In this document: positions 9,274-53,448 of the stretch, one piece after another
Layout of the letters: each line of letters starts with the position of its first letter
Position numbering within the stretch: the first letter of the stretch is position 1
Virus record (IMG/VR): IMGVR_UViG_3300047457_000500
Location: 59,488-123,487 of that record
Direction: 5' to 3' (one strand)
Source: a virus
DNA: 64,000 nucleotides
Notes under the pieces: generated by a model
Seen by the model: the letters and a program-made list of their open reading frames with translations, nothing else
The model's database searches: none
Told to the model about the DNA's origin: nothing
Translations under genes and position numbers: made by a program

Positions 9274-9900
9274 ATGATTAAAGTTTATAAAAATCTAATG
9301 TCCGAAGAAGACAGATTATCTGTTTTAGATGTTATGCAATATTTTGAAGAACCTCTATGGGGTCCTAGCATTTGTACAGATGAACCAGTAAGACAATTGA
9401 GGGACTGGCTGCCTATTTCAGTTCATAAAAAAATGTATTCTGTTCATAAAAAAGTTATACCATTAATAGAAAAAGATTTTAGATTAAGTGAAAGAAATGT
9501 AAAAATAACAAACCCAGAATATTCAGACCTTATGAATACTTCATTTTTAACTATGGATCGAAGAGATCCAGGAATGAGCCTAGGTCCTCATCCAGACATT
9601 CCTACAGGAACATATCAGCCTCATCCAGGAATATCTTTGGGTGGAGGAAGCCCTATCACAATATCAGGTATTTTCTACTGGAATGATGATATTGAAGGCG
9701 GAGAACTTAAGTTTCACGATGACGACGTTGCTATAGAAAGACCAGAGGAATGTGATATTAAATCTCCGTATATCTATAAGCCAGTTGCTGGAGATTTTGT
9801 TGCTTTTGAGTCTAAATATATACATGAAATTCTAGAGGTAAAATCTGGACACAGATATTCGACTCAGTGGTTTTTTGCTAATGAAAATTGGAAAGGCTAG
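9274..9900 (+). CDS. 2OG-Fe(II) oxygenase (prolyl hydroxylase-like)
   Basis: HPD, YWNDDIEGGEL, HEI and RYS motifs. Confidence 0.85.
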   Translation: MIKVYKNLMSEEDRLSVLDVMQYFEEPLWGPSICTDEPVRQLRDWLPISVHKKMYSVHKKVIPLIEKDFRLSERNVKITNPEYSDLMNTSFLTMDRRDPGMSLGPHPDIPTGTYQPHPGISLGGGSPITISGIFYWNDDIEGGELKFHDDDVAIERPEECDIKSPYIYKPVAGDFVAFESKYIHEILEVKSGHRYSTQWFFANENWKG

Positions 9901-14967: not shown

Positions 14968-15002
14968 TTACTTATCCTTTCTTTTTCTATCTTTCTAGGA
15001 GT

Positions 15003-15025
15003 ATCCTAACACCTACCACTGACAT
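15003..15025 (-). promoter_or_regulatory. PafBC/RecA-NDp-type promoter ATGTCAGTG-N8-TAGGAT
   Basis: A 25-bp identical copy occurs at 15322-15346. Confidence 0.6.
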
Positions 15026-15063
15026 TTTGGGGTGTCTGTGGGGTGTGTCCCCTGTGATGTGTA

Positions 15064-15276
15064 TCACTCGAAGAATACAGCACCTCTAACATTTTTGTGA
15101 TTTACACAAACATTTCCACGAGGGATTTCCACATGGCATTTGAAGCATAGCATTTTGACTTCTGCTTTTGTAACTATTGCTAATTCTAAATCTAGCAATT
15201 CGCTACTAGTAGCATTTTCTAACGATACCCAACCAGCACCGTTTTCATCTAATCTAAACATTTCTAATGTAGCCAT
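15064..15276 (-). CDS. Early-region small Cys/His protein
   Basis: AGAAAGG RBS; CFKC...CVNH. Confidence 0.6.
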   Translation of the reverse strand: MATLEMFRLDENGAGWVSLENATSSELLDLELAIVTKAEVKMLCFKCHVEIPRGNVCVNHKNVRGAVFFE

Positions 15277-15324
15277 TTTGTGACCACCTTTCTTTCTAAT
15301 CTAAAACTTATCTTGATACCTAGT

Positions 15325-15627
15325 ATCCTAACACCTACCACTGACAAATTGGGGGTAACAATTCGGACATTTGGTATATTTGGGATTGTGAGTTACCTCA
15401 CATTTTTTAGGCCACTATTTATTTTTTATAGGAGTATCCTAACATATAAATCTAAAAAAGTCAACACGACACGCCGTATTTCTAGATAACATTTTCATAA
15501 CGACACGCCCGACAGCGTCGGCAAATGTCCGTTTTGTCCGATTTACGTTTATGTGATTATGCTCACAAAAATAAATCCCCGACACGCCCGAAAAACAGGC
15601 TAATTTGTCAGTCCCCCCTGTTAGAAT
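15325..15627. promoter_or_regulatory. Divergent early control region with PafBC-type promoters, CRP-like boxes and CGACACGCC boxes
   Basis: TTGTCAGT-type promoters at 15325-15347 (-) and 15605-15627 (+); TGTGA-N6-TCACA at 15387-15402 and 15552-15567; CGACACGCC at 15467, 15501 and 15580. Confidence 0.7.
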
Positions 15628-15661
15628 ACTAGTATTAGAAAATAAAGAAAGGTGGTCTAAA

Positions 15662-15841
15662 ATGACTACACTAAGAGAAATAGAAAATCTAGGCTTTTGC
15701 CTAACCGATAATATCTGTGTGTTTTGCTCACACACTATGGACGGGTGGGATCGTGTATGCGTACCCTGTAACGAATATAAAGGCGTGATGAATATCGTTT
15801 CCGCCGTAGGCTACTATGGGAAAGATATTCTTCCCGTGTGA
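15662..15841 (+). CDS. Small zinc-finger protein
   Basis: CVFC...CVPC; AGAAAGG RBS supports the 15662 start. Confidence 0.6.
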   Translation: MTTLREIENLGFCLTDNICVFCSHTMDGWDRVCVPCNEYKGVMNIVSAVGYYGKDILPV

Positions 15842-15911
15842 GCCACCTCACAAAAATAAATAAAATCTAACGGCGTGTCGCCTTGAAAATGTCAGCCAAA
15901 AATGCTAAAAT
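15837..15911 (+). promoter_or_regulatory. Composite promoter: CRP-like box, CGGCGTGTCG, TTGAAA-N17-TAAAAT with an internal TGTCAG
   Basis: Read directly from the sequence; the architecture is repeated at 16919-16998. Confidence 0.65.
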
Positions 15912-15943
15912 TACAGAGTAATAAAATGAAAGAAGGTAAAAAT

Positions 15944-16144
15944 ATGTCAGCAAATGTGTATCCAATCCAAGCCCTACTAATTGGTAAGGCTTATCGCTCT
16001 CGCTCTATTCAGGGAATTATTGAGGACGCAGAGCCTCGCCCTAATGTATGGTATAAAGGCGCAGATGCCTACGCCGTTCGTGTTCGTCCTGTAAATGGTG
16101 CTCGTGATGAATGGCGCACTCTAGCCGTAAAGGTTGGTGAGTAA
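15944..16144 (+). CDS. Small SH3-like early protein
   Basis: Paralog of 17029..17244 (LL.G..Y...G.I..AE.R..VW....AYA.R). Confidence 0.6.
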   Translation: MSANVYPIQALLIGKAYRSRSIQGIIEDAEPRPNVWYKGADAYAVRVRPVNGARDEWRTLAVKVGE

Positions 16145-16254
16145 TGAAACTAGATGAATTCAAAGCCTATATTGAGGCACAGCGCAAAGCGCAACAATTG
16201 ACAAACTTAGAGAAAATCGCTAAAATTATAACAACAGAAAAGAAAGGTAACTAA
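16144..16254 (+). CDS. Small hypothetical protein (36 aa, MKLDEFKAYIEAQRK...)
   Basis: TAATG coupling; manual translation. Confidence 0.5.
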   Translation: MKLDEFKAYIEAQRKAQQLTNLEKIAKIITTEKKGN

Positions 16255-16258
16255 ATAA

Positions 16259-16522
16259 ATGACTACTACTAATTACACAGACTATAAATTTTCCGTCAAT
16301 GGCGTAAAGTTTATTTCAAGAATAAATGCTAACTCTCCATTCGCAGGCTCTCTCGCAAAACTTCCTTCGCAGGTTGTTATCGATATGAATGTTCAAGCCG
16401 TAACGGAATTAGTTGGTGACGCTTCTAAATTTACTCGTGATGAGTTATTGGAAGAATTAGAAAGAGTAAATGACGGCGGAACTCATGCATTCATTCTACT
16501 AGATGAAGAGGTGAGTGCATGA
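16259..16522 (+). CDS. Early-region hypothetical protein
   Basis: AGAAAGG RBS. Confidence 0.6.
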   Translation: MTTTNYTDYKFSVNGVKFISRINANSPFAGSLAKLPSQVVIDMNVQAVTELVGDASKFTRDELLEELERVNDGGTHAFILLDEEVSA

Positions 16523-16710
16523 GCCTAACAAAAACACACTTCAAGGCTATCGCCTCAATTCTAAATGATGTCAAAGAAGAAATTCATCCGCAAGTCTATG
16601 AGGATTTAGTAGAAGGATTTTCAACTTATTTCGGAACAAAAAACGAAATGTTCGATAAAGCAAAATTTGAAACCGCTTGCGGTGTTGATGAGTTAGGAAT
16701 AATTGCATGA
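16519..16710 (+). CDS. Early-region hypothetical protein
   Basis: MxxTKxHFxxIA...NxxFD..KF..AC motif, common in phage early genes. Confidence 0.65.
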   Translation: MSLTKTHFKAIASILNDVKEEIHPQVYEDLVEGFSTYFGTKNEMFDKAKFETACGVDELGIIA

Positions 16711-16896
16711 TTAGATTTCTAACTACACTTGTTCAAATTGGTTTAGTTCTTTCAATTTATTTTATAATAAAACTTGCCAAAGAATAAAATCAAATTTTCA
16801 AAATGTGAAATCTGCGGTAGAATTTTTATCGCAGATCTAAAATGTTTTGTGTGTGCTGCTAAACAATAGTTGAAATTTCAACAAGTTGCCGACCAC

Positions 16897-16917
16897 TTAT
16901 CCACAGGGTTATCCACA
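16897..16917 (+). promoter_or_regulatory. Two tandem perfect DnaA boxes (TTATCCACA x2)
   Basis: At 16897-16905 and 16909-16917, 3-nt spacer, intergenic. Confidence 0.6.
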
Positions 16918-17028
16918 ATGTGAATTACGTTACAATAAAAAAATTTCCCAGATTTTACGGCGTGTCGTTTTGATTTTGTCAGTCCTAGATGATAGGATTA
17001 CAGAGTAATAAAATGAAAGGAAAACTAA

Positions 17029-17244
17029 ATGAGAAGTTACTCTATTGAAGATTTGTTGGTAGGGCAATACTATAAGCCTACCTCTCTAGCCCGTAGATTT
17101 ATGGGGGGAGAAATAAATTTTGCTGAAAAGCGTGATGATGTTTGGGTAGGCACAGACTATCAAGCCTACGCAATTCGTTATCGTGTTGGACAGTCCCTAA
17201 AGACTGATTGGGCTACTATTGCCGTTCGTGTGTCTGATTTGTAA
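17029..17244 (+). CDS. Small SH3-like early protein
   Basis: Paralog of 15944..16144; both leaders share attacagagtaataaaatgaaag. Confidence 0.65.
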   Translation: MRSYSIEDLLVGQYYKPTSLARRFMGGEINFAEKRDDVWVGTDYQAYAIRYRVGQSLKTDWATIAVRVSDL

Positions 17245-17294
17245 ATGTCAGACCAATATGCTAAGATTTCAGTATCAAAAGAAAGGATATAAAA

Positions 17295-17504
17295 ATGGAT
17301 AAATTGGAATACGCACTACGCACTATCGCTAATTGCGATTTGTGTTATGGTCAAGGTTATAATGGTTGGGCTATTGGCGAGGACTATGATATGGAGGATT
17401 GTATTTGTAATCCTTATGGTCTAATCCTTGAAAATGGCGAAGTTATTTTTGATAATGGCTTACTAAGTGAGCCTGAACTATTCACAACGCAGGAGGCTTA
17501 CTAA
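17295..17504 (+). CDS. Small zinc-finger protein
   Basis: CDLCYGQG...CIC; has its own PafBC-type promoter at 17245-17267. Confidence 0.65.
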   Translation: MDKLEYALRTIANCDLCYGQGYNGWAIGEDYDMEDCICNPYGLILENGEVIFDNGLLSEPELFTTQEAY

Positions 17505-17505
17505 T

Positions 17506-17790
17506 ATGGGAAGTAATTTTGCTAATGATTTGGCTTTGGCTGATAATCTAACTATTGAAACTCAGATTGAAATACACCTGAAGTCTAATCACTATCCACC
17601 CGTTCCGTCTTTCATGGTGCCTACTTGTATTGAGGCTATTGACGCTGTAAATGACGCAGGGCTTTGGCACTTAGAAATACCTCTACCTGAAGGGGTATTG
17701 TATAAGGGTAATTTGACTACCGCACCAGCACACGCTATTATTGACCAACACCACCTTGAAGCGTGGCTTATTGAAAGAGAGGAATACTAA
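17506..17790 (+). CDS. Early-region hypothetical protein
   Basis: MGSNFAND start with AGGAGG RBS; HL.SNHYPPVP motif. Confidence 0.65.
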   Translation: MGSNFANDLALADNLTIETQIEIHLKSNHYPPVPSFMVPTCIEAIDAVNDAGLWHLEIPLPEGVLYKGNLTTAPAHAIIDQHHLEAWLIEREEY

Positions 17791-18001
17791 AATGGAATAC
17801 AACTATGTTCTAACAACTTACTATGACGGAGAATTATTTTCTACTCATAGAATTAGCGACTTCATGGAAGCGCATGAGGCGTGGGCTAAATGTGTAGACT
17901 ACGGCAACGCTACCATGTTCGCAACTTATAATCTTACAGACCCAACAGGTAAAATGTATACAAAAAACTTTTATTCTGATGGCAGAGTAGAGATTAGATA
18001 A
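17791..18001 (+). CDS. Early-region hypothetical protein
   Basis: Probable start MEYNY just after the previous stop; GAGGA RBS. Start coordinate is approximate. Confidence 0.55.
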
Positions 18002-18229
18002 ATGTCTGCTACAATAAATGACATGGAACTAGTATTCGCTGATTATCTTTTGCCAAACCAATTGGCAGAAGGTGATCTAGTAAAGATTGAAGATCAATTT
18101 GTAACAGTAAAAACAATCATGGAAGCAAGTAATGGTTATCATTTAGTTTTGCTTGATGACTTTGATGATGAAGTTGAAGCATTTGTTTTAGATGATGACA
18201 AAATTGAATGGTACGTTTTTGTAGAGTAA
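18002..18229 (+). CDS. Small acidic SH3-like protein
   Basis: QLAEGDLVKI...VTVKTI beta-barrel pattern. Confidence 0.55.
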   Translation: MSATINDMELVFADYLLPNQLAEGDLVKIEDQFVTVKTIMEASNGYHLVLLDDFDDEVEAFVLDDDKIEWYVFVE

Positions 18230-18326
18230 AAGTGCCCGACTCGATTTGCACTAAATGTCCGTTTTACGTAGTTTGTTAAGAACCTCCCTATTTGATTTTC
18301 TAATATTTTTATGATATTATTATTTC

Positions 18327-18470
18327 ATGTTTAGAAAAAGCAAAGAGGAATTAAGGCGTATTCAAGAATTACGCAGATCTAACGCTGCCTCTGCCTTGCC
18401 AAACAAAAAGGCCTATACTAGACAAAGCAGCAAAAAAATGTTAGAATTAGAAAAGAAAGAAAGGCCCTAA
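18327..18470 (+). CDS. Small basic protein (47 aa, ...ELRRSNAASALPNKKAYTR...)
   Basis: Manual translation; extended -10 immediately upstream. Confidence 0.55.
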   Translation: MFRKSKEELRRIQELRRSNAASALPNKKAYTRQSSKKMLELEKKERP

Positions 18471-19190
18471 ATGAAACTAAAGCGCAGCAATGATAGGAAA
18501 GTAGCAAATGCAGTCTCCCCAAATGGAAAAACCCCAACAATCGCAAACACTTTTGGATTACCTAGTGGTAAGGCTTACTCATGTCCTGGTGAGACCTCTG
18601 TATGCAGCAAAGTATGCTACGCAGGAAAACTTGAAAAAATCTACAAAGGTGTAAGAGATACCCTATTACATAACTGGAATTTATTGAAAGACGCAGACCA
18701 TGACACTATGGAAGAGTTGCTCATGGAAATGATAGAAGACTTCAAAAAAGACTGTGATAAGCGTGAGGCTCCTAAACTATTTCGTATTCACTGGGACGGT
18801 GATTTCTTTTCGGATGAGTACGCATTCGCCTGGAAGCATGTTGTGCTAAATAATCCTGATGTTCAATTCTGGGTATACACTCGTGTGGCTTCCGCTGCTA
18901 ATATGCTCAAGAATATTGAAAACCTAAGTTTATATTTCTCTGCAGATAGTGAGAATATCAAAACCGCTGTAGAGTTAAAACAAACTCATGGCATTCGTAT
19001 GGCATACCTTGCACAAAATTTTGCTGCAGGACAAGAAAAAATGAAAGAACTTATTTCTAAACCTGGAGCAAAGTGTCCTGAAAATGCAAAACGCATTCCG
19101 CTTATTTCTACTAATGGAAGTGCGTGTGTGTCATGTGGGTTGTGTGTTTATAACAAGTCTGATATAGTATTCTCTGCTAGTAAAAAATAG
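18471..19190 (+). CDS. Gp88-like Fe-S/radical-SAM-fold protein
   Basis: SCPG.T..C.K.CYA, FRIHWDGDF, FWVYTR, C-terminal CP...CVSCGLC. Confidence 0.75.
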   Translation: MKLKRSNDRKVANAVSPNGKTPTIANTFGLPSGKAYSCPGETSVCSKVCYAGKLEKIYKGVRDTLLHNWNLLKDADHDTMEELLMEMIEDFKKDCDKREAPKLFRIHWDGDFFSDEYAFAWKHVVLNNPDVQFWVYTRVASAANMLKNIENLSLYFSADSENIKTAVELKQTHGIRMAYLAQNFAAGQEKMKELISKPGAKCPENAKRIPLISTNGSACVSCGLCVYNKSDIVFSASKK

Positions 19191-19419
19191 GAGTTGAAAT
19201 GAAAATGCAATATGTATTCTTAGCATGGTTCGTATTGTTATTTTTTATTTATCAATAGATCCCCCGCAAAAGTGGTCGGCCCCTAAACCTTAGATTTGTC
19301 AAGTTACGACGCTGTGATTAAGGACACAGGAAAAAACCTCATAAAATGCCATAAACGATTTGTATTTCTTGTATTTTTTTGCTAAACTTATACTATAACG
19401 ACAACAGAAAGGAAACGAA

Positions 19420-19587
19420 ATGACACTAGGCGGATACACTTATCAGGTAGGCGATTTATTCACCACCTCTAAGACAGGAGTTACAGGACGAATTGAAAAG
19501 TTTGTTCCTATCTCTCGTAATGTTACCAGAGTCATGCTACGCTTGGCAAATAACCAACAGCGTTTTGCTATGGTCAAAACACACTAA
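19420..19587 (+). CDS. Small SH3-like early protein
   Basis: YQVGDLFTTSKTGVTGRI; paralog of the next gene; manual translation. Confidence 0.65.
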   Translation: MTLGGYTYQVGDLFTTSKTGVTGRIEKFVPISRNVTRVMLRLANNQQRFAMVKTH

Positions 19588-19683
19588 TCTCAAAATATGA
19601 GAAATCTCAGAAATAACTTGACGAGAAATCTCAAAAATGCTAAAATTGAATATATCAACAACCAACTAACAAAGGAGAAAGAA

Positions 19684-19851
19684 ATGGCAGTAAATAACGC
19701 AACTTACAAGGTAGGCGACACCTACACCTCACAGAAGTCAAAGGTCACAGGTGTTATCACAGAAATCAAGCCAAACACAGACGGAACAAGCGTTCGTGTG
19801 AAACTTGATGTCAATGGCTCACCTCGCTGGACTACTTGGACAGCAAAGTAA
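19684..19851 (+). CDS. Small SH3-like early protein
   Basis: YKVGDTYTSQKSKVTGVI; AAGGAG RBS supports the 19684 start. Confidence 0.7.
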   Translation: MAVNNATYKVGDTYTSQKSKVTGVITEIKPNTDGTSVRVKLDVNGSPRWTTWTAK

Positions 19852-19866
19852 TTCCTAAACAGGAAA

Positions 19867-19896
19867 AGTCCTGAGCATGACTACTAAAACTGCTCA
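19867..19896 (+). ncRNA. Conserved 3' pseudoknot motif, copy 1
   Basis: AGTC-CTGAGCAT-GACT-ACTAAAAC-TGCTCA. Confidence 0.7.
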
Positions 19897-19931
19897 TAAC
19901 AACAAACAACGAAAGAAAAGGAAAATAACAA

Positions 19932-20354
19932 ATGGCACGACAAAAAGCAATTAGCGTGAAAATCGCTACAACCAAAGTTATCAAGGCTTTGGAAACTAAG
20001 TTAGCACAAATCAAGAAAGATAAGGCTAACCAAAAAACTAACGAGGAGAAGTATCAGAAGGCTCACGAAAAGTGGCTAAAAGATGTTGCTAAACTTTCTC
20101 TCGCTCAAATCTCAAAGGCAGAAAACCTACGAGCAAGCACACGCTACAATGGCATGGTAAATGTAGATTTTGATTTGCCTAAGTCTGTGGTAGCAGATTT
20201 CCCTGCTGAACCTGAAAAGGATTTTGAGACTTTTCATGAGTGGCAGTATAAGGAAATGGTTGAGGAAATTGAGAACGCAATTCGTATTCTCAAGATGACA
20301 GATGAGGAAGTAGTTTCTACTTCTACTTACAACGCTATCGCTAGATACTTGTAA
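19932..20354 (+). CDS. Hypothetical coiled-coil protein
   Basis: Strong RBS and biased codon usage. Confidence 0.7.
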   Translation: MARQKAISVKIATTKVIKALETKLAQIKKDKANQKTNEEKYQKAHEKWLKDVAKLSLAQISKAENLRASTRYNGMVNVDFDLPKSVVADFPAEPEKDFETFHEWQYKEMVEEIENAIRILKMTDEEVVSTSTYNAIARYL

Positions 20355-20425
20355 TTTGGTTGGGGGAGGGTATTTGACTCCCCCACTAATAAATGCTATG
20401 ATTAGATAATACGAAAGGATAAGCC

Positions 20426-20839
20426 ATGGAAACAACTAACATTCATAACGTCACTGAGGAATTTTTAAAAACTCAGATTACACAAAAAGATGAACGAATT
20501 CAGGTCCTGGAAGAGCATGTACAGCGTGTAACACAGCGTGACTACGCTACCGCTGGAAAACTGCAGGCAATGCGAGACGGTCTACACGAGTGGACTATGA
20601 CTGAATTAGAAAATAATGGAATCACAGAGGAGCAGGCTACTGAACTTTCTGAGATTGGTGGATTTGAACTTACAAAAGAAGTAGAGGCTGAAGTTACAGT
20701 CCGCTACTGGATTACTCTTCAGATTCCTGCAGGAGAAGACGCAGAGTCTGTAATCAATGATATTGATTTCGACGCAATTACATATGATACTGATGTGATA
20801 ACACATGTTAGTTCATCTGTAGACAGTATCGATATCTAA
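20426..20839 (+). CDS. Hypothetical acidic protein
   Basis: Own promoter (TTGACT...TATGAT) and GAAAGGA RBS. Confidence 0.7.
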   Translation: METTNIHNVTEEFLKTQITQKDERIQVLEEHVQRVTQRDYATAGKLQAMRDGLHEWTMTELENNGITEEQATELSEIGGFELTKEVEAEVTVRYWITLQIPAGEDAESVINDIDFDAITYDTDVITHVSSSVDSIDI

Positions 20840-20845
20840 CAATCT

Positions 20846-20918
20846 TCCTGGCCTTCATGAAAGGGGCCAGGATCTGCAAGCATCGCTCTTCTTTCATCCT
20901 TTCTTTCAAAGAGCATGC
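20846..20918 (+). ncRNA. Two hairpins, the second with an anti-SD loop (UCAUCCUUUCUUUC)
   Basis: tcctggcc/ggccagga stem, then a gcat-c-gctctt/aagagc-atgc stem around an 18-nt pyrimidine loop. Confidence 0.5.
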
Positions 20919-20921
20919 AAG

Positions 20922-20951
20922 GGACCTGAGCACGTCCACGTAAACTGCTCA
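20922..20951 (+). ncRNA. Conserved 3' pseudoknot motif, copy 2
   Basis: GGAC-CTGAGCAC-GTCC-ACGTAAAC-TGCTCA, followed by a T run. Confidence 0.7.
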
Positions 20952-21089
20952 TTTTTTATTGAAAAAGTGGTCGGGCGATTTGTCCTATATGTCCGATTTA
21001 CGAATTATGATCATATTCCCCAATCCTGGATTTGCTTTTGTCACCCCATTGTGCTAAACTTTAGATAACAAAACAGAAAGGAAATAAAA

Positions 21090-22097
21090 ATGGCTCATGA
21101 ATTAGAATCTGCTAATTCTTTCGCATCATTCCGTGAACCTGCTTGGCATGGTTTAGGAACTGTATTTCAGGAGGAAGTTACTACTGAAAAAATGTTGGAA
21201 CTCGCTAACCTTGATGGTTGGAATGTTCGTCTTGAAGATGTCGTAATCCCAGACACTCTTTCATCTGATAAATCTTATCAATATGTTGTGCGTGATAACC
21301 CATTCACCGCAAATCAAGTTGATGTTCTAGGCGTTGTTGGTGAACGCTATGTCCCATTGCAAAATGAAGACCTATTCACATTTGGTGATGCAATTCTTGA
21401 TGGCGGAGGTCGTTGGGAAACTGCTGGCTCATTGCGTGGTGGTCGTGTTGTATTTGGTTCTCTTGCTCTTGAGCGTGAGACTGTTCTAGACCCTAATGGC
21501 GTCGCTGATGTTGTCAAGACTTATCTTCTTGTCAACACATCACATGATGGTTCTGTTGCTATTCAAGCATCTGTAACACCTGTTCGTGTTGTATGCGCTA
21601 ACACTCTTGCTGTTGCACTAGGTCGCACTAGCAAAAAGGGTGGCGTAAAACAATCATTCAAGATTCGTCACACACAATCTGCTGAGGGTAAAGTTCAACA
21701 GGCTCGTGAGGCTCTTGCTGTTGCCAATGCTTATATGGATTCATTCTCTCTAATGGCTAAGGCTATGATTGAGAAAGAAATCACAGCGCAACAATTCAAT
21801 GATATTGTTCTCGCTGCGTATCCTAAGCCTGATGAAACCAAAAAGGGTGCATTGTCTAAGTGGACAACTAAGATTGACACTATCAATGACATCTATACAG
21901 GTGAATTCAATGGCATGATTGCTGGCACTGCATGGGGTGCATGGAATGCACTTACAGAAAGAATCGATTGGTATCGTGGAGGTAAGCGTGGTCTTACTGA
22001 ATCAATTCTAATGGGTTCAAGTGGATTTGACCCTGCTATCACAGCAGAAAAAAATCGTTTGCTAACTATTGTTCGCAACTCTCTAGAATTGGTGTAA
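21090..22097 (+). CDS. DUF932 family phage/plasmid protein
   Basis: MAHELE...PAWHGLG, ETAGSL.GGR, NTSHDGS and VRVVCANT motifs. Confidence 0.9.
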   Translation: MAHELESANSFASFREPAWHGLGTVFQEEVTTEKMLELANLDGWNVRLEDVVIPDTLSSDKSYQYVVRDNPFTANQVDVLGVVGERYVPLQNEDLFTFGDAILDGGGRWETAGSLRGGRVVFGSLALERETVLDPNGVADVVKTYLLVNTSHDGSVAIQASVTPVRVVCANTLAVALGRTSKKGGVKQSFKIRHTQSAEGKVQQAREALAVANAYMDSFSLMAKAMIEKEITAQQFNDIVLAAYPKPDETKKGALSKWTTKIDTINDIYTGEFNGMIAGTAWGAWNALTERIDWYRGGKRGLTESILMGSSGFDPAITAEKNRLLTIVRNSLELV

Positions 22098-22104
22098 CAA
22101 TTCA

Positions 22105-22131
22105 ACTCCTGAGCATGAGTAAAAACTGCTC
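22105..22131 (+). ncRNA. Conserved 3' pseudoknot motif, copy 3
   Basis: ACTC-CTGAGCAT-GAGT-AAAAAC-TGCTC. Confidence 0.7.
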
Positions 22132-22229
22132 TCTTGACAAAGATCAAAAAAGGTGCCGACCAAAAATATCATTTAGAAATTTAATTACGATACGTTGACA
22201 AAATCCCCAAATTTTGCTATTATTTATTC

Positions 22230-22424
22230 ATGGACCAAAAAGAACTAACGACATACATGACAAACCTGCGTAGTGGCCTGGATGAAGACCTACGTAATCT
22301 TGCTGCAGAAATGGACTCTATTGACCCTGCCTCTAAAGACTTTGCAGACCTAGACTTTGAGTTTAATTATATTACAGGACAAGTATCAATGTTAAGCCAT
22401 ATACTACAAAAGATAGGACAATAA
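22230..22424 (+). CDS. Hypothetical protein
   Basis: TTGACA-N17-TATTAT promoter, apparently leaderless. Confidence 0.6.
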   Translation: MDQKELTTYMTNLRSGLDEDLRNLAAEMDSIDPASKDFADLDFEFNYITGQVSMLSHILQKIGQ

Positions 22425-22582
22425 TGCTGGGGTATACAGAAGAACAAGTAGATAAGATGCTCACTACATTAAACTATACTATTCATCATCATATGACTGG
22501 TAAGTTTGCAGATGAGGATAGGTCAGTACTTAGAGATCTAGAGGACTTCTTACAGGGTTTGTTAGCAGAGGGACGTATTTGA
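22424..22582 (+). CDS. Small hypothetical protein (MLGYTEEQ...GLLAEGRI)
   Basis: TAATG coupling; manual translation. Confidence 0.55.
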   Translation: MLGYTEEQVDKMLTTLNYTIHHHMTGKFADEDRSVLRDLEDFLQGLLAEGRI

Positions 22583-22634
22583 CATCCCCCTGATATTTTG
22601 CTAGAATTGCATACAACGACTAGAAAGGAATAAT

Positions 22635-23330
22635 ATGCCAAATTGGGTATATAACTCTCTAACTATTGAGGGTAATGCAGAAGACATTTCTGCTATCAAA
22701 ACACAACTAAACCAACCATTCCAACGTCAACACGACCAATGGAATATGGAAACAAGACAAATGGAATTACAGGATGTTACTTATTCAAACCCTGTATTTG
22801 CATTCTGGAATATTATCAAGCCAACTAATCTAGAGGCATACAATAAGCAGTCTGACCATTCATTACCTATGGAAGAACAACTTATGTTCAAGGGTGATAA
22901 CTGGTATGACTGGAATGTAACTAACTGGGGAACCAAATGGGATGTTGCTGTATCAGATAATGAGCAGTATCCTGAGACTGAACTAATCAACGAAGAGGAT
23001 TGGTCAGATAGACTTACCTATAGTTTCAATACCGCTTGGTCTCCTCCTCTTCCTGCTATTGCTACATTGTCAGAACAATATCCTAATTTAGAATTTACCT
23101 TGTCATACGAGGAAGAAACAGGCTGGGGTGGCGAAATAGAGTTCCTCAATGGTCAAGATACTGTATTAGAAAACTATGAAAACAAATGTCGTGACTGTGA
23201 TTCAATCAACACACTAGAGTATTGCGAAAACGACTGTGGTGAGATATGCTCTGATTGCCATTACATGGGTGAGGCAGACTTAGAGTGTGTTGCAGAGTGT
23301 GACATACATAAAGAATACTTGGAGGCATAA
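22635..23330 (+). CDS. DUF1281/YubB-like ferredoxin-fold protein with a Cys-rich tail
   Basis: MPNWV.N.L.I.G, WYDWN..NWGTKW and F.TAWSPP motifs. Confidence 0.8.
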   Translation: MPNWVYNSLTIEGNAEDISAIKTQLNQPFQRQHDQWNMETRQMELQDVTYSNPVFAFWNIIKPTNLEAYNKQSDHSLPMEEQLMFKGDNWYDWNVTNWGTKWDVAVSDNEQYPETELINEEDWSDRLTYSFNTAWSPPLPAIATLSEQYPNLEFTLSYEEETGWGGEIEFLNGQDTVLENYENKCRDCDSINTLEYCENDCGEICSDCHYMGEADLECVAECDIHKEYLEA

Positions 23331-23581
23331 TGTTACCTGATTATCTAAAGAATGCAATCAATGCAGGTGCTACAGGACTAGATGTCATGCACGGGCACCT
23401 GAAGACGCTTATGCTTGACGCAGAACGGGAACTAGAAGAGGCGCAGCGGGTAGAAGACGAGACCGAAGAGGCCATTGATTCCATGGAGCGCAAGTACTGG
23501 GAGGGACAATTAGACGCCCTATCATATGTTTATAGCCTTACATATGAACTGTCATTTGCAGTAGCGGATAGGGAGGAATAG
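23330..23581 (+). CDS. Hypothetical protein
   Basis: TAATG coupling; DSMERKYWEGQLDAL. Confidence 0.6.
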   Translation: MLPDYLKNAINAGATGLDVMHGHLKTLMLDAERELEEAQRVEDETEEAIDSMERKYWEGQLDALSYVYSLTYELSFAVADREE

Positions 23582-23660
23582 ATCCACGTGTATGAGCAAT
23601 TGACATTAGACCTGGACCCTGATATCATTAATACAAACCCAACTACAGAAAGGACCCCCC

Positions 23661-24027: not shown

Positions 24028-24087
24028 GGGGCGTAAGGTTTGGTTTATTCCTTTCGTCGTTGTGCCTTGCGCCCCTCCCACTTTTTT
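24028..24087 (+). ncRNA. Hairpin with an anti-leader/anti-SD loop and a T tract
   Basis: 12-bp stem ggggcgtaaggt/gccttgcgcccc; the loop is complementary to 22613-22633. Confidence 0.55.
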
Positions 24088-30609: not shown

Positions 30610-31361
30610 TTCATAGTGTTATACTTTCCATCTATTACGATGCAGACTTGATCTAATATGTTTCTTGGCTCATTGTTAAAGTATAATCTTAGTCCATCTA
30701 ATGTATCATGTATAACTTTTTCGTTATTCATTGTTAGATTATAACAAAGAGCAGCCCTTCTTGTTTTTCCCAATATAGAAATTGCTTCTTCCAAAAAGTT
30801 TGGTATCTCATCATGAAATTCTTGACCACGTTTTGCATTTCTTAGCATCAAAACCATTGGGTATCTATAATCTTTTCTTTCTTCTAAAAACAATAACCTT
30901 TCATCTTTAACAAAAGGCAAAAATGATTCAAATATAAAGTTATGCATGGTACCTGTAACTGCAACTGCTGCCATTACAACAGATGGTCCTGGAGTAGATG
31001 TAATATGTATTCCTTCTGATATGCATCTCTTTACAATTCTAGCGCCTGGATCAGCAACGCCTGGCATTCCCTCATCTGATATTAAATATACATCTTCTCC
31101 ACTTTTTAATATAGACAAAACCTTTTCCATATTGTGTAATTCATATGCTTCTCCTGGCTCACCACCATCTGAATCATATTCTATTGATATTGTGTTTACG
31201 TTAGGCTTTTGCATCCCTAGTGCTGGCCAAATTCTTTCAAATGCTTCTTCTCTTTCAATTACTATATTTTTTGCATCTTTAATATATTGATATGCTCTAT
31301 TAGACATATCATCCCAGTTGCCTACGGGTAATCCAACTAAAAAAAGTTTTCCATATTTCAT
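30606..31361 (-). CDS. rsmI: RsmI-like SAM-dependent methyltransferase (tetrapyrrole methylase fold), copy 1
   Basis: GKLFLVGLPVGN, ISDEGMPGVADPG, PGPS and FIFESFLP motifs. Confidence 0.75.
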   Translation of the reverse strand: MKYGKLFLVGLPVGNWDDMSNRAYQYIKDAKNIVIEREEAFERIWPALGMQKPNVNTISIEYDSDGGEPGEAYELHNMEKVLSILKSGEDVYLISDEGMPGVADPGARIVKRCISEGIHITSTPGPSVVMAAVAVTGTMHNFIFESFLPFVKDERLLFLEERKDYRYPMVLMLRNAKRGQEFHDEIPNFLEEAISILGKTRRAALCYNLTMNNEKVIHDTLDGLRLYFNNEPRNILDQVCIVIDGKYNTMN

Positions 31362-32481: not shown

Positions 32482-32509
32482 CCACCTGAGCATGTGGATA
32501 AACTGCTCA
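32482..32509 (+). ncRNA. Conserved 3' pseudoknot motif, copy 4
   Basis: CCAC-CTGAGCAT-GTGG-ATAAAC-TGCTCA. Confidence 0.7.
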
Positions 32510-32531
32510 TTTGCCATGCTATAATATTCTT

Positions 32532-32849
32532 ATGCCATATCATGTAGGTGCTAAAGGTTCCCATGGATGTTCTGGATACCCTGCTGTAAAAGACACAGGA
32601 GAGGTTATGGGGTGCCATAAAACTCGTGCTGATGCTGCAGGACAAATCTATGCAATCAATAGGTCTGAAGGCAATATAAAGTCTTTAAATAATGAATGCT
32701 GCCCAGATGAAGTAGAAAAGAAAGCCCCTTGTTGGGAAGGATATGTTCAGCGTGGCATGAAAGAAAAAAATGGCAAGATGGTACCCAACTGTATTCCAGT
32801 AGAGAAAACAATTTGGGAAGGTTCAGCCTTCGATAGAAAGAAAAGATAA
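32532..32849 (+). CDS. Hypothetical phage protein
   Basis: GCH.T...A..Q..A and PCWEGY...GMK.K.GK.VPNC motifs; leaderless start MPYHV. Confidence 0.7.
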   Translation: MPYHVGAKGSHGCSGYPAVKDTGEVMGCHKTRADAAGQIYAINRSEGNIKSLNNECCPDEVEKKAPCWEGYVQRGMKEKNGKMVPNCIPVEKTIWEGSAFDRKKR

Positions 32850-33001: not shown

Positions 33002-33758
33002 TTATTTTTTGATTTGTAATTCCATCAACGACTAAGCATAAATTACCCAAAACTTTATTATTTAATAAATACTCTTCTATATCTTTTAGCAATCCCCTTA
33101 TTACTTTTTGTTTTGAAGTTGTTAGATCTATGCAAAGTACAGCACGTCGGTCTTCTCCAAAAAAAGAAATACATTCTTTAATAAAAACATCAGCATCAAA
33201 ACAGTTATGTATCATATGAATTTTATCGTCACTGTCTATAGGTCTAGTGTTTGGGTTATGTAAAAGAAAGATCATTGGTGCAGGTGATGTTTGTAAAAAT
33301 TTAAATTTTTCATGTCTGTCAGAGTTTGTATTAGACATAAATCCTTCAAATATAAAGTTGTTCAGAACATTGCATACAGATGCTGCTGCTACTACAGTGG
33401 ATGGGCCAGGAGTTGTTACTATTTCTATATTATTTTTTATTGCTTCTTTTACTAATATTTCACCAGGATCTGCTAAACCAGGCATTCCTTCATCTGATAT
33501 TATATAAACATCTTCTCCACCTTTAAGCAATGAAATAATTTTTTCTTTAATATTCATTTCTCTGTTATTGTTTAAAGAAAAGCATATGTCTATTAATTCT
33601 GCACTATAATAAAAATTATTTAAATTACAATATTCCTTAAACCTATCTATATCTTCAACACAAATATATTTAGCGTCAGAAAAAGCGTCCAGCAGTCTTT
33701 TGGAAACATCTAAACTATTCCCTATTGGGGATCCAATTAGATATAACTTACCATACAT
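32994..33758 (-). CDS. rsmI: RsmI-like methyltransferase, copy 2
   Basis: GKLYLIGSPIGN, ICVED, ISDEGMPGLADPG, PGPS and FIFEGF motifs. Confidence 0.75.
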   Translation of the reverse strand: MYGKLYLIGSPIGNSLDVSKRLLDAFSDAKYICVEDIDRFKEYCNLNNFYYSAELIDICFSLNNNREMNIKEKIISLLKGGEDVYIISDEGMPGLADPGEILVKEAIKNNIEIVTTPGPSTVVAAASVCNVLNNFIFEGFMSNTNSDRHEKFKFLQTSPAPMIFLLHNPNTRPIDSDDKIHMIHNCFDADVFIKECISFFGEDRRAVLCIDLTTSKQKVIRGLLKDIEEYLLNNKVLGNLCLVVDGITNQKITI

Positions 33759-48650: not shown

Positions 48651-48935
48651 TTATTTCTCGTTGGTCAAACTAACCCAAAGATTGCTCCAGTCTTTTTCAT
48701 CTTTATGATTATTAAACTCTTTAGATATTTCTCCACCCTCTAAATAAACTCCGCCCCATACTCCCCATTCTTTTTGAGAGACGCCCACAGAAAAGCAAGT
48801 TTTCATTACTGGGCATCTGGTGCACAATTCATCTATTGCGCTTCTAAAGTTTTCTGATTCTTCGTATTTATCAAAAAATAAATTAGTATCATAATCTAAA
48901 CATGACCCATTATCTTTCCACTTTAATTTATGCAT
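48651..48935 (-). CDS. whiB: WhiB family transcription factor
   Basis: W.....C...FF...C..CPV...C...WGVWGG motif. Confidence 0.9.
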   Translation of the reverse strand: MHKLKWKDNGSCLDYDTNLFFDKYEESENFRSAIDELCTRCPVMKTCFSVGVSQKEWGVWGGVYLEGGEISKEFNNHKDEKDWSNLWVSLTNEK

Positions 48936-52722: not shown

Positions 52723-53448
52723 TCATTTTGATTGAGAGATTACAAGTGTATAATAAGAATAAAACATAAGAATATTAGTTTTCCATCCATTTATTATATC
52801 AAAATGAAATGGAAATTTTCTATGTTTTTCTAAAATTTCTTTCATTTCTTTGCTCTTGCCCCTCAATATTTTTTGTGTCGGCTTACTTATATCACAACAA
52901 ACCGCTAAATCTCTGTCTGGAAAAACTGTTGCAATGTCATCAATGTACTTATCCAAAAATGGAATACAAATAAAAATAATAGGACAATCTAAAGATTTTA
53001 TATTATTTAAAAAATTTAAAGTATTATCTTGTGGGATCCTTCCTGCAAAATAAAATTCTCCCCTATTTCCTTCAAAACCAGAAAAAAACAATGCTTGCAA
53101 AACCGAGTTTGGTCCAGGAATGAGGTCTATATCTATTCCCATTCTAATTAAGTTGTGTAATAATTCAATACCAGAGTCTTGTATTGTGGGATAGCCGTCA
53201 TTTGAAACTACAAGAATATTTTTATCTTCCTTCAATCCATTAAGTATTACTTCCAATATTTGCTTAATATTATCCTTAGTTTCGTATATTTGTGAAATAT
53301 TTGCACCATTTTCCAAACAAAATTTTTTAAATACTTTTTCAGTTTCAACTATTGCTATATCAGTTATCTTTAGGTACTCCTGTAATGCAATAGCAATATG
53401 AGAGTTGTCGCCTATTGGGGTGGCTGCAAATACAACCTTTTTTGTCAT
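52723..53448 (-). CDS. rsmI: RsmI-like methyltransferase, copy 3 (most diverged)
   Basis: AATPIGD, VSNDGYPTIQDSG, IPGPNS and FYFAGRIP motifs. Confidence 0.7.
   Translation of the reverse strand: MTKKVVFAATPIGDNSHIAIALQEYLKITDIAIVETEKVFKKFCLENGANISQIYETKDNIKQILEVILNGLKEDKNILVVSNDGYPTIQDSGIELLHNLIRMGIDIDLIPGPNSVLQALFFSGFEGNRGEFYFAGRIPQDNTLNFLNNIKSLDCPIIFICIPFLDKYIDDIATVFPDRDLAVCCDISKPTQKILRGKSKEMKEILEKHRKFPFHFDIINGWKTNILMFYSYYTLVISQSK

Follow-up and report, generated by a model that had tools for sequence, protein, structure and literature searches.

The untranslated 3' region (3' UTR) of icaR in Staphylococcus aureus carries an anti-Shine-Dalgarno motif that pairs with its own mRNA's Shine-Dalgarno (SD) sequence, blocks ribosome loading and creates a substrate for RNase III, an action that the authors allow to be in cis or in trans (PMC3868564). 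In mycobacteria, the 6C small RNA (sRNA) binds mRNAs through C-rich loops without a chaperone such as Hfq or ProQ (PMC6486639). Alphaproteobacteria have cuckoo RNAs (CcsR / alpha-r14), which consist of two to four adjacent hairpins in which the stems vary and the anti-SD-like loop motif CCUCCUCCC is fixed (PMC4615179). Here we analyze a non-coding module of about 105 nt at positions 20846-20950 (+ strand) of a 64,000-nt window, which covers bases 59488-123487 of the 123,487-bp IMG/VR virus record IMGVR_UViG_3300047457_000500, rated complete. The second hairpin of this module exposes a loop that resembles the tail of 16S rRNA, and with moderate confidence we read it as masking one class of early ribosome-binding sites (RBSs), in cis or in trans, as a delayed negative feedback. 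An earlier note on this DNA, made from the letters alone, had proposed a protected sRNA that would blanket SD-led mRNAs while leaderless phage transcripts escape.

An invariant loop on covarying stems

The module begins 7 nt past the stop codon 20837-20839 and lies within the 250-nt spacer between the open reading frame (ORF) 20426-20839 and the DUF932 gene 21090-22097. It is composed of two hairpins and an H-type pseudoknot, with a short T tract behind them:

20846-20872, + strand: hairpin 1, a 10-bp stem (20846-20855/20863-20872) with two G-U pairs at its top and a 7-nt loop, in both the minimum free energy (MFE) and the centroid structure
20880-20918, + strand: hairpin 2, in which 20880-20883 and 20885-20890 pair with 20909-20918 and C20884 is bulged
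20922-20950, + strand: H-type pseudoknot with stems S1 (20922-20925/20934-20937) and S2 (20928-20932/20946-20950), from a descriptor scan of the whole genome and covariance model (CM) matches
20952-20957, + strand: T6 tract 3' of the pseudoknot, in this phage only

The stem of hairpin 2 reads GCAT-c-GCTCTT (20880-20890) on one side and AAGAGC-ATGC (20909-20918) on the other, and it closes a CU-rich loop of 18 nt, CTTTCATCCTTTCTTTCA (20891-20908), with the core TCCTTTCT at 20897-20904. RNAfold returned this hairpin as both MFE and centroid structure (-10.4 kcal/mol, z -2.5), and in a 130-nt context the loop is unpaired with a probability of 0.99. The GC-rich hairpin 1 carries an SD-like motif, ATGAAAGG, at 20857-20864. 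The hairpin, loop, flanking GC hairpin and pseudoknot that the earlier note had described are confirmed; the U tract it listed is present in the window as T6, but it is not conserved in relatives.

By comparing 80 loci out of the 281 IMG/VR relatives found for the neighboring DUF932 protein, we found the exact 18-mer loop in 16 of them, down to 78% DUF932 identity. Across IMG/VR, 38 exact matches of the 18-mer occur, 22 in the three-part context and 16 at unrelated sites, several of which read, on the opposite strand, as an RBS plus ATG. The covariation set was made of 17 distinct module sequences in 109 alignment columns (MAFFT, alignment A1). Loop columns T48-T63 are invariant in 17/17 sequences, and so is the hairpin 1 motif ATGAAAGG (columns A15-G22), while the stems change and keep pairing: 98.3% of the stem cells pair, compared with 84.2 +/- 1.2% in shuffled alignments (0/500 reach the observed value) and 26-43% with slid partners. 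Most of the unpaired cells come from one relative, L009, which is partly misaligned in A1. Twelve pairs in total are altered on both sides, with 7/10 pairs of hairpin 1 and 4/5 pairs of the lower stem of hairpin 2 among them. The five upper-stem pairs of hairpin 2 were excluded from this test and counted by folding single sequences, because MAFFT and a CM realignment (A2) both left them one column out of register; folded separately, the sequences show seven different upper stems under the identical loop. In the pseudoknot, 100% of the cells pair in A1, and compensatory changes are seen in both S1 and S2 across the 80 loci. The expectation of a conserved loop on variable stems was therefore borne out.

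G-U pairs are found at two positions in 14-16 of the 17 sequences and therefore fix the + strand. A minus-strand RNA or ORF (20808-20939) was ruled out, since these G-U pairs would become A-C mismatches, and so was a conserved small ORF, because indels of 1-2 nt among relatives shift the frames opened by the ATGs of the hairpin 1 loop and the linker. The linker codons read ATG-TAA in one relative (L014) and ATC in the window.

The features on both sides of the module are as follows:

20426-20839, + strand: upstream gene of 137 aa, no family, with the module in its 3' UTR
21032-21089, + strand: DUF932 promoter and leader, sigma-70-type, with the -35 box at 21032-21037, an extended -10 box at 21052-21060 and the SD AGAAAGGA at 21075-21082
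21090-22097, + strand: DUF932 gene (DUF932 match 1.5e-46)

The DUF932 promoter, which lies downstream of the module, was kept in 77/77 upstream regions compared; therefore, the module is the tail of the upstream transcript and not the DUF932 leader. A riboswitch in the DUF932 5' UTR was rejected on the same ground, the conserved promoter standing between module and gene. There is a promoter-like site (20374-20402) ahead of gene 20426-20839, and none was seen in the window between the stop codon and hairpin 1. A discrete sRNA of about 110 nt, as formerly suggested, is plausible from the promoter-driven versions that relatives possess (described below), but in the window no promoter of its own was found for the module, which lies in a 3' UTR. 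The terminator scan of 19800-22200 gave no + strand terminator, and hairpin 2 was rejected as an intrinsic terminator, since its loop spans 18 nt and a U tract does not follow. At 20965-21000, in the stretch from the pseudoknot to the DUF932 promoter, we also observed repeated (A)ATGTCCG(A/T)TTT and TTTGTCC boxes that are conserved in relatives and are a candidate operator to which a DNA-binding protein would attach; the promoter itself retains TGTCA(G/C) about 10 nt ahead of its -10 box.

The stretch is represented in RNA libraries. Four metatranscriptomic runs contain 21-40% of the sampled words of 19500-22500, and RNA-library contigs identical to the window span 20675-20872 (run X2) and 20761-20911 (run X3), together with a relative's piece equivalent to 20886-20951 (run X4). 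In the four runs, contig depth is zero over the promoter stretch (21015-21115) and little over 20914-21014, gaps of a kind that prove nothing.

The loop, the 16S tail and the ribosome-binding sites

In a sample of the class to which an Aquiluna-titled metagenome-assembled genome (MAG) belongs, 45/81 genomes contain the actinobacterial 16S tail motif invoked by the earlier note, compared with 0 control matches; in L244, the motif closes the small-subunit rRNA gene at its 3' end. In mycobacteria, the 16S 3' end is placed 11 nt past the C/ACCU cut (PMC12274833). The loop core TCCTTTCT is identical to the last 8 nt of this tail, and the CCUCC core is replaced by CATCC. By its letters the loop is thus a partial 16S mimic, which keeps the terminal bases of the anti-SD mimicry claimed before but not its CCUCC core. 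Because that core is missing and only UCCUUUCU is copied, the loop fits AGAAAGGA-type SDs, to which it is complementary as had been stated, and not the GGAGG type.

SDs of the AGAAAGG(A)/GAAAGGA kind precede 12/24 genes of a small-gene block (14.6-24.1 kb) and 4/169 genes elsewhere, the gene calls behind these counts being crude (ORFs of at least 50 aa, start picked by SD). Outside the block, the SDs are of the AAGGAGG or AGGAGG type, or the starts look leaderless (TATAAT, 6-8 nt, ATG). In the window as a whole, many genes have such leaderless-looking starts without an SD, at 22183-22232 and 32510-32534 and, for example, at 9274, 13113, 37704, 43346(-) and 63094(-). The division once drawn between SD-led early genes and leaderless genes therefore stands for the block and for the frequency of leaderless starts, but not for the many AAGGAGG/AGGAGG SDs outside. 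The motif AGAAAGGA itself has 5 occurrences in 123 kb, all within positions 17280-23647 of the window. Predicted duplexes between the loop and the translation initiation regions (TIRs) reach -10 kcal/mol or better for 14/24 block genes compared with 11/169 elsewhere (Mann-Whitney p 3e-5), and 15 TIRs form -10 kcal/mol or better with the 16S tail yet worse than -8 with the loop. The RBS consensus of the block extends to a 10-mer, GAAAGAAAGG, which the loop matches fully, while the 16S tail cannot read that far. With one mismatch allowed, this 10-mer has 15 matches versus 5.7 +/- 2.2 expected (0/100 shuffles reach this number), and 8/14 non-self matches, at 14976-19920, closely precede the starts of called genes. 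The mRNA that carries the module offers a complementary site as well: the SD GAAAGGAT (20413-20420) of gene 20426-20839 is predicted to pair with ATCCTTTC of the loop over 8-9 bp (-10.7 kcal/mol), and the SD GGAAAGGAT of this gene is kept in 12/14 sequences compared, the window included.

A sister hairpin of the same kind closes an operon further downstream:

24028-24087, + strand: operon-end hairpin with a 12-bp stem, a 24-nt loop containing TCCTTTC, and then a T tract

Its loop reads antisense to 22613-22640, the leader of gene 22635, over 8 + 11 bp plus 5 bp past the ATG, and this leader is its best non-self partner in the genome (-28.5 versus -23.5 kcal/mol for the next). In L009, the leader differs close to the start codon, with a matching change in the loop (CCCAA/TTGGG); in L018, leader and loop are both different and share a 13-nt contiguous complement. 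In L008/L003 and L012 there is the generic 8-nt SD complement alone, with a second loop in L008 that matches 7 leader nt. Covariation between the 24028-type loop at the 3' terminus of the operon and the 5' leader of that operon is partial but real, and it follows the logic shown by experiment for icaR.

Structure, conservation, strand, 3'-UTR position, complementarity and the locations of the complementary sites are established for the module, and from them we infer that pairing occurs, in cis or in trans, and has an effect. Hairpin 2 would be the seed-presenting arm of a module produced as the tail of the 20426-20839 transcript. Its permanently single-stranded core, (A)UCCUUUCU(UUC), would pair with the A-rich AGAAAGG(A) RBSs special to the phage's block of small genes, which are probably early; the SD of the mRNA that carries the module is one of these sites. 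As more of the module is made, such pairing would keep the 30S subunit from the RBSs, reduce translation and possibly set off decay, leaving genes with GGAGG-type SDs and leaderless genes unaffected. For the pseudoknot, the probable role is to form or protect the RNA's 3' end. The general switch from SD-led to leaderless translation that was first proposed is not supported, since the loop would spare the GGAGG-type SDs of many non-early genes and its predicted effect is class-specific.

Several points weigh against masking by the loop. The SD of gene 20426-20839 is not the strongest TIR partner of the loop, and we found no long specific target for the loop in the phage's own genome, its best non-self match (-19.4) falling inside a DnaE-like ORF. 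In the hairpin 2 family the loop is constant, so that covariation between loop and SD is not demonstrable there; when families are compared, CCC-type loops accompany GAAAGGG SDs in 9/55 cases compared with 42/540 of the other class, a weak difference among redundant loci. For the sister hairpin, a 5 x 5 cross-test placed the cognate leader best or near-best in 3/5 lineages, the loop extraction for the two failing rows having taken in stem bases. The CTTTCAT part of the hairpin 2 loop may be used intramolecularly with the hairpin 1 loop. Moreover, the RNA-library contigs cannot give ends, strand or abundance and could come from DNA carry-over, and the term "early" is derived solely from gene size and position.

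The wider family and competing explanations

Four pseudoknot copies of 27-29 nt occur in the window, at 19867-19895, 20922-20950, 22105-22131 and 32482-32508 (+), each on the sense strand right behind a gene and each with a different stem 1. The copy at 32482 abuts the extended -10 box of a leaderless gene (ATG 32532). RNA-library contigs of relatives (runs X1 and X2) join 20356, where gene 19932-20354 ends, to 22106, in the pseudoknot copy at 22105, with 4 other letters between, and thus gene 20426-20839, the module and DUF932 are skipped in those contigs. The pseudoknots mark junctions between the modules of the mosaic.

An IMG/VR scan for CCTTTC followed by a pseudoknot, with both pseudoknot stems required, gave a wider family; its counts are those among the matches listed. 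CCTTTC lies in a hairpin loop (at least 5 bp closing) in 44/57 distinct segments, compared with 83/600 control CCTTTC sites taken from the same loci, and at least 35 distinct stems occur under the shared loop motif (U/C)CCUUUCU. Among the 59 distinct occurrences listed, 46 are within 130 nt of a long-ORF stop, 12 have a promoter-like site upstream (10/12 matches or better) and 7 have both. In L135, a perfect TTGACA-17-TGnTATAAT promoter precedes the hairpin and pseudoknot, behind which come an SD and a gene, so that the module is a 5' leader. L177 is laid out as a stand-alone non-coding unit, with a promoter, three hairpins (two with an identical TCCCTTTCT loop) and a pseudoknot, and then directly the extended -10 box of a leaderless gene. 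The contig L035 has no hairpin 2 before DUF932, but an L177-type unit (L185) stands about 4.5 kb on. Since 3'-UTR, leader and stand-alone settings are all seen, hairpin and pseudoknot together form a portable unit. In the more distant relatives L021-L081, hairpins 1 and 2 upstream of DUF932 are replaced by a short GGGG(G)-loop hairpin, often over the stop codon, which is followed by one or two tandem pseudoknots.

Rfam 15 at the gathering threshold recognized only the 8 tRNAs encoded in the window and no family for the module, and only tRNAs in the loci of ten relatives; with 20780-21100 searched at E <=10, the best match was wcaG with 16.6 bits, below its gathering score of 42. The 8,495 candidate RNAs catalogued from IMG/VR in 2023 (PMC10690425) possibly already include the motif; the main text of that work mentions neither Shine-Dalgarno nor DUF932. 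No earlier report of phage anti-SD hairpins was found in the literature with the terms searched.

How such a unit acts could be explained in other ways. If it were a purely structural 3'-end element, which terminates transcription or blocks 3'-to-5' exonucleases while its loops contact a protein, be it RNA polymerase, a nuclease or a factor of the phage, the anti-SD likeness would be incidental. The module's place, 7 nt after a stop codon and ahead of a promoter, suits this explanation, as do the 46/59 listed family members within 130 nt of a long ORF, the pseudoknots standing alone at three further gene ends in the window and the T tract after the 24028 hairpin. However, a stabilizer requires stems and not an invariant 18-nt loop, the CCUUUCU loop sits on at least 35 unrelated stems, the 24028 loop covaries with an mRNA leader rather than with a fixed protein site, and behind the module the T tract is not conserved and the scan found no + strand terminator; on balance, we regard a purely structural role as unlikely. 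It seems quite improbable to us that the two loops instead kiss each other within the molecule, giving a compact fold that serves as a protein or ribosome ligand or as a self-masked switch. The hairpin 1 loop ATGAAAG is indeed the exact 7-nt complement of CTTTCAT, which makes up the 5' third of the loop of hairpin 2, neither side varies in any of the 17 sequences, and the loop's 3' end TTTCA tolerates variation while CTTTCAT does not. But this invariance precludes a covariation test, the predicted duplex is weak (-8.2 kcal/mol), and L026, L018, L125 and L165 keep CCUUUCU with a different hairpin 1 loop or none.

A global translation switch would have the module act in trans as a 16S-tail mimic that blankets host and early phage SDs, with hairpin 1 perhaps titrating 30S subunits, until leaderless mRNAs take over. 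We hold this to be quite doubtful. It would account for the identity of the loop core with the last 8 nt of the tail, for the SD-like GAAAGG in the hairpin 1 loop and the GGGG loop of other lineages, and for the promoter-driven versions in relatives; leaderless-looking genes are common in this phage, and leaderless mRNAs are abundant in mycobacteria (PMC12274833). Lacking CCUCC, however, the loop pairs poorly with the AAGGAGG/AGGAGG SDs outside the block (the 15 TIRs that are strong with the tail and weak with the loop), and one loop per transcript, with no promoter of its own here, makes stoichiometric blanketing of host mRNAs doubtful. Very improbable, in our view, is a decoy role towards host toxins, endoribonucleases that cleave the anti-SD region of 16S rRNA, whereby a MazF-mt3-type U-CCUU site in the loop would shield ribosomes in abortive infection. 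TCCTT is present in the loop, MazF-mt3 cuts U/CCUU and MazF-mt6 UU/CCU, and the mycobacterial MazF-mt11 removes the anti-SD (PMC12274833). On the other side, family members with CCCUUUCU loops have no UCCUU, the enrichment of complementary SDs beside the RNA would be left unexplained, and the toxins of the host are not known.

Masking of one RBS class can be extended, tentatively and as a somewhat unlikely whole, to an uncatalogued lake-actinophage RNA family of anti-SD hairpin and gene-end pseudoknot, whose SD-like (hairpin 1) and 16S-tail-like (hairpin 2) loops would jointly silence early AGAAAGGA RBSs as the RNA builds up. Middle and late genes, being GGAGG-led or leaderless, would be spared, which would make the family an RNA-only temporal switch. 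In phage T4, such an early-gene shut-off job is performed by the RegB nuclease.

The phage, its likely host and related RNAs

The window has a GC content of 29-42% and a WhiB-family gene at 48651-48935 (-), which scores 46.9 bits against a cut-off of 23.6; among 14 control genomes, the WhiB family matched in Corynebacterium only. Leaderless mRNAs are typical of actinobacteria. The WhiB gene and the many leaderless-looking genes therefore indicate an actinobacterial host, which is probable as previously supposed, and freshwater actinobacteria would agree with the low GC content and with the matching sequencing runs, which are labeled as lake and aquatic. Eight WhiB homologue matches were in MAGs titled as unrelated phyla (e.g., Beijerinckiaceae, Polynucleobacter, Chitinophagaceae and Methylococcus), uninformative on the host; the contigs are probably mis-binned phage contigs, and the 16S tail pattern was absent from two MAGs holding WhiB homologues. 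A blastn search of the INPHARED phage collection gave no similar sequence. The three RsmI-like enzymes noted earlier are present as TP_methylase (Pfam) genes at 30696-31349, 33078-33749 and 52843-53439, all (-), with 85, 54 and 50 bits; the 16S methylase RsmI belongs to this superfamily.

To our knowledge, the regulatory RNAs of phages of the most abundant freshwater bacteria are essentially unknown. At this locus, a conserved small RNA showing the last bases of the 16S tail adjoins a block of genes that use the matching, unusual RBS. If the pairing is true, this would be the first phage case of 3'-UTR-borne anti-SD control and a simple RNA-only timing of early-gene expression. It would also provide a 105-nt, one-loop, few-target model of chaperone-independent RNA regulation in actinobacteria, hosts in which leaderless, GGAGG-led and A-rich-SD mRNAs occur side by side. 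The hairpin-pseudoknot family, with at least 35 stems and one loop core, is a candidate for an RNA family description.

Like the icaR element, the phage motif is pyrimidine-rich, lies in a 3' UTR and is complementary to an SD of the same mRNA, and the likeness is closest for the 24028 hairpin, the loop of which pairs in prediction with the leader of its own operon while both covary. The icaR motif, however, is UCCCCUG, 260 nt after the stop codon, and a single case, whereas the phage carries (A)UCCUUUCU in a covarying hairpin beside a pseudoknot, on many phage contigs and with a predicted own-SD pairing of 8-9 bp. With 6C, the module shares pyrimidine-rich hairpin loops as direct mRNA-binding sites and an actinobacterial setting; 6C differs in its C-rich loops, G-C pairing and nature as a chromosomal stand-alone RNA, and the phage loop is U-rich, has no run beyond CC and gives no Rfam match. 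The variable stems over one loop core in the phage family (at least 35 stems), and the two such hairpins in tandem in L177, recall the cuckoo RNAs, which have CCUCCUCCC instead of CCUUUCU, belong to another host phylum and are not known to have a pseudoknot; the window has a single anti-SD hairpin and this other loop motif. The wcaG RNA (RF01761), a two-hairpin RNA of phages and metagenomes, gave the sole full-length Rfam alignment (20840-20931), but membership was rejected, with 16.6 bits against 42, an E value of 0.82 in the 321-nt search and an alignment that ignores hairpin 2. Because the module lacks the defining loop motifs and sufficient Rfam scores, it is, as judged from sequence, a member of none of these families; in mode, it resembles icaR, 6C and the cuckoo RNAs.

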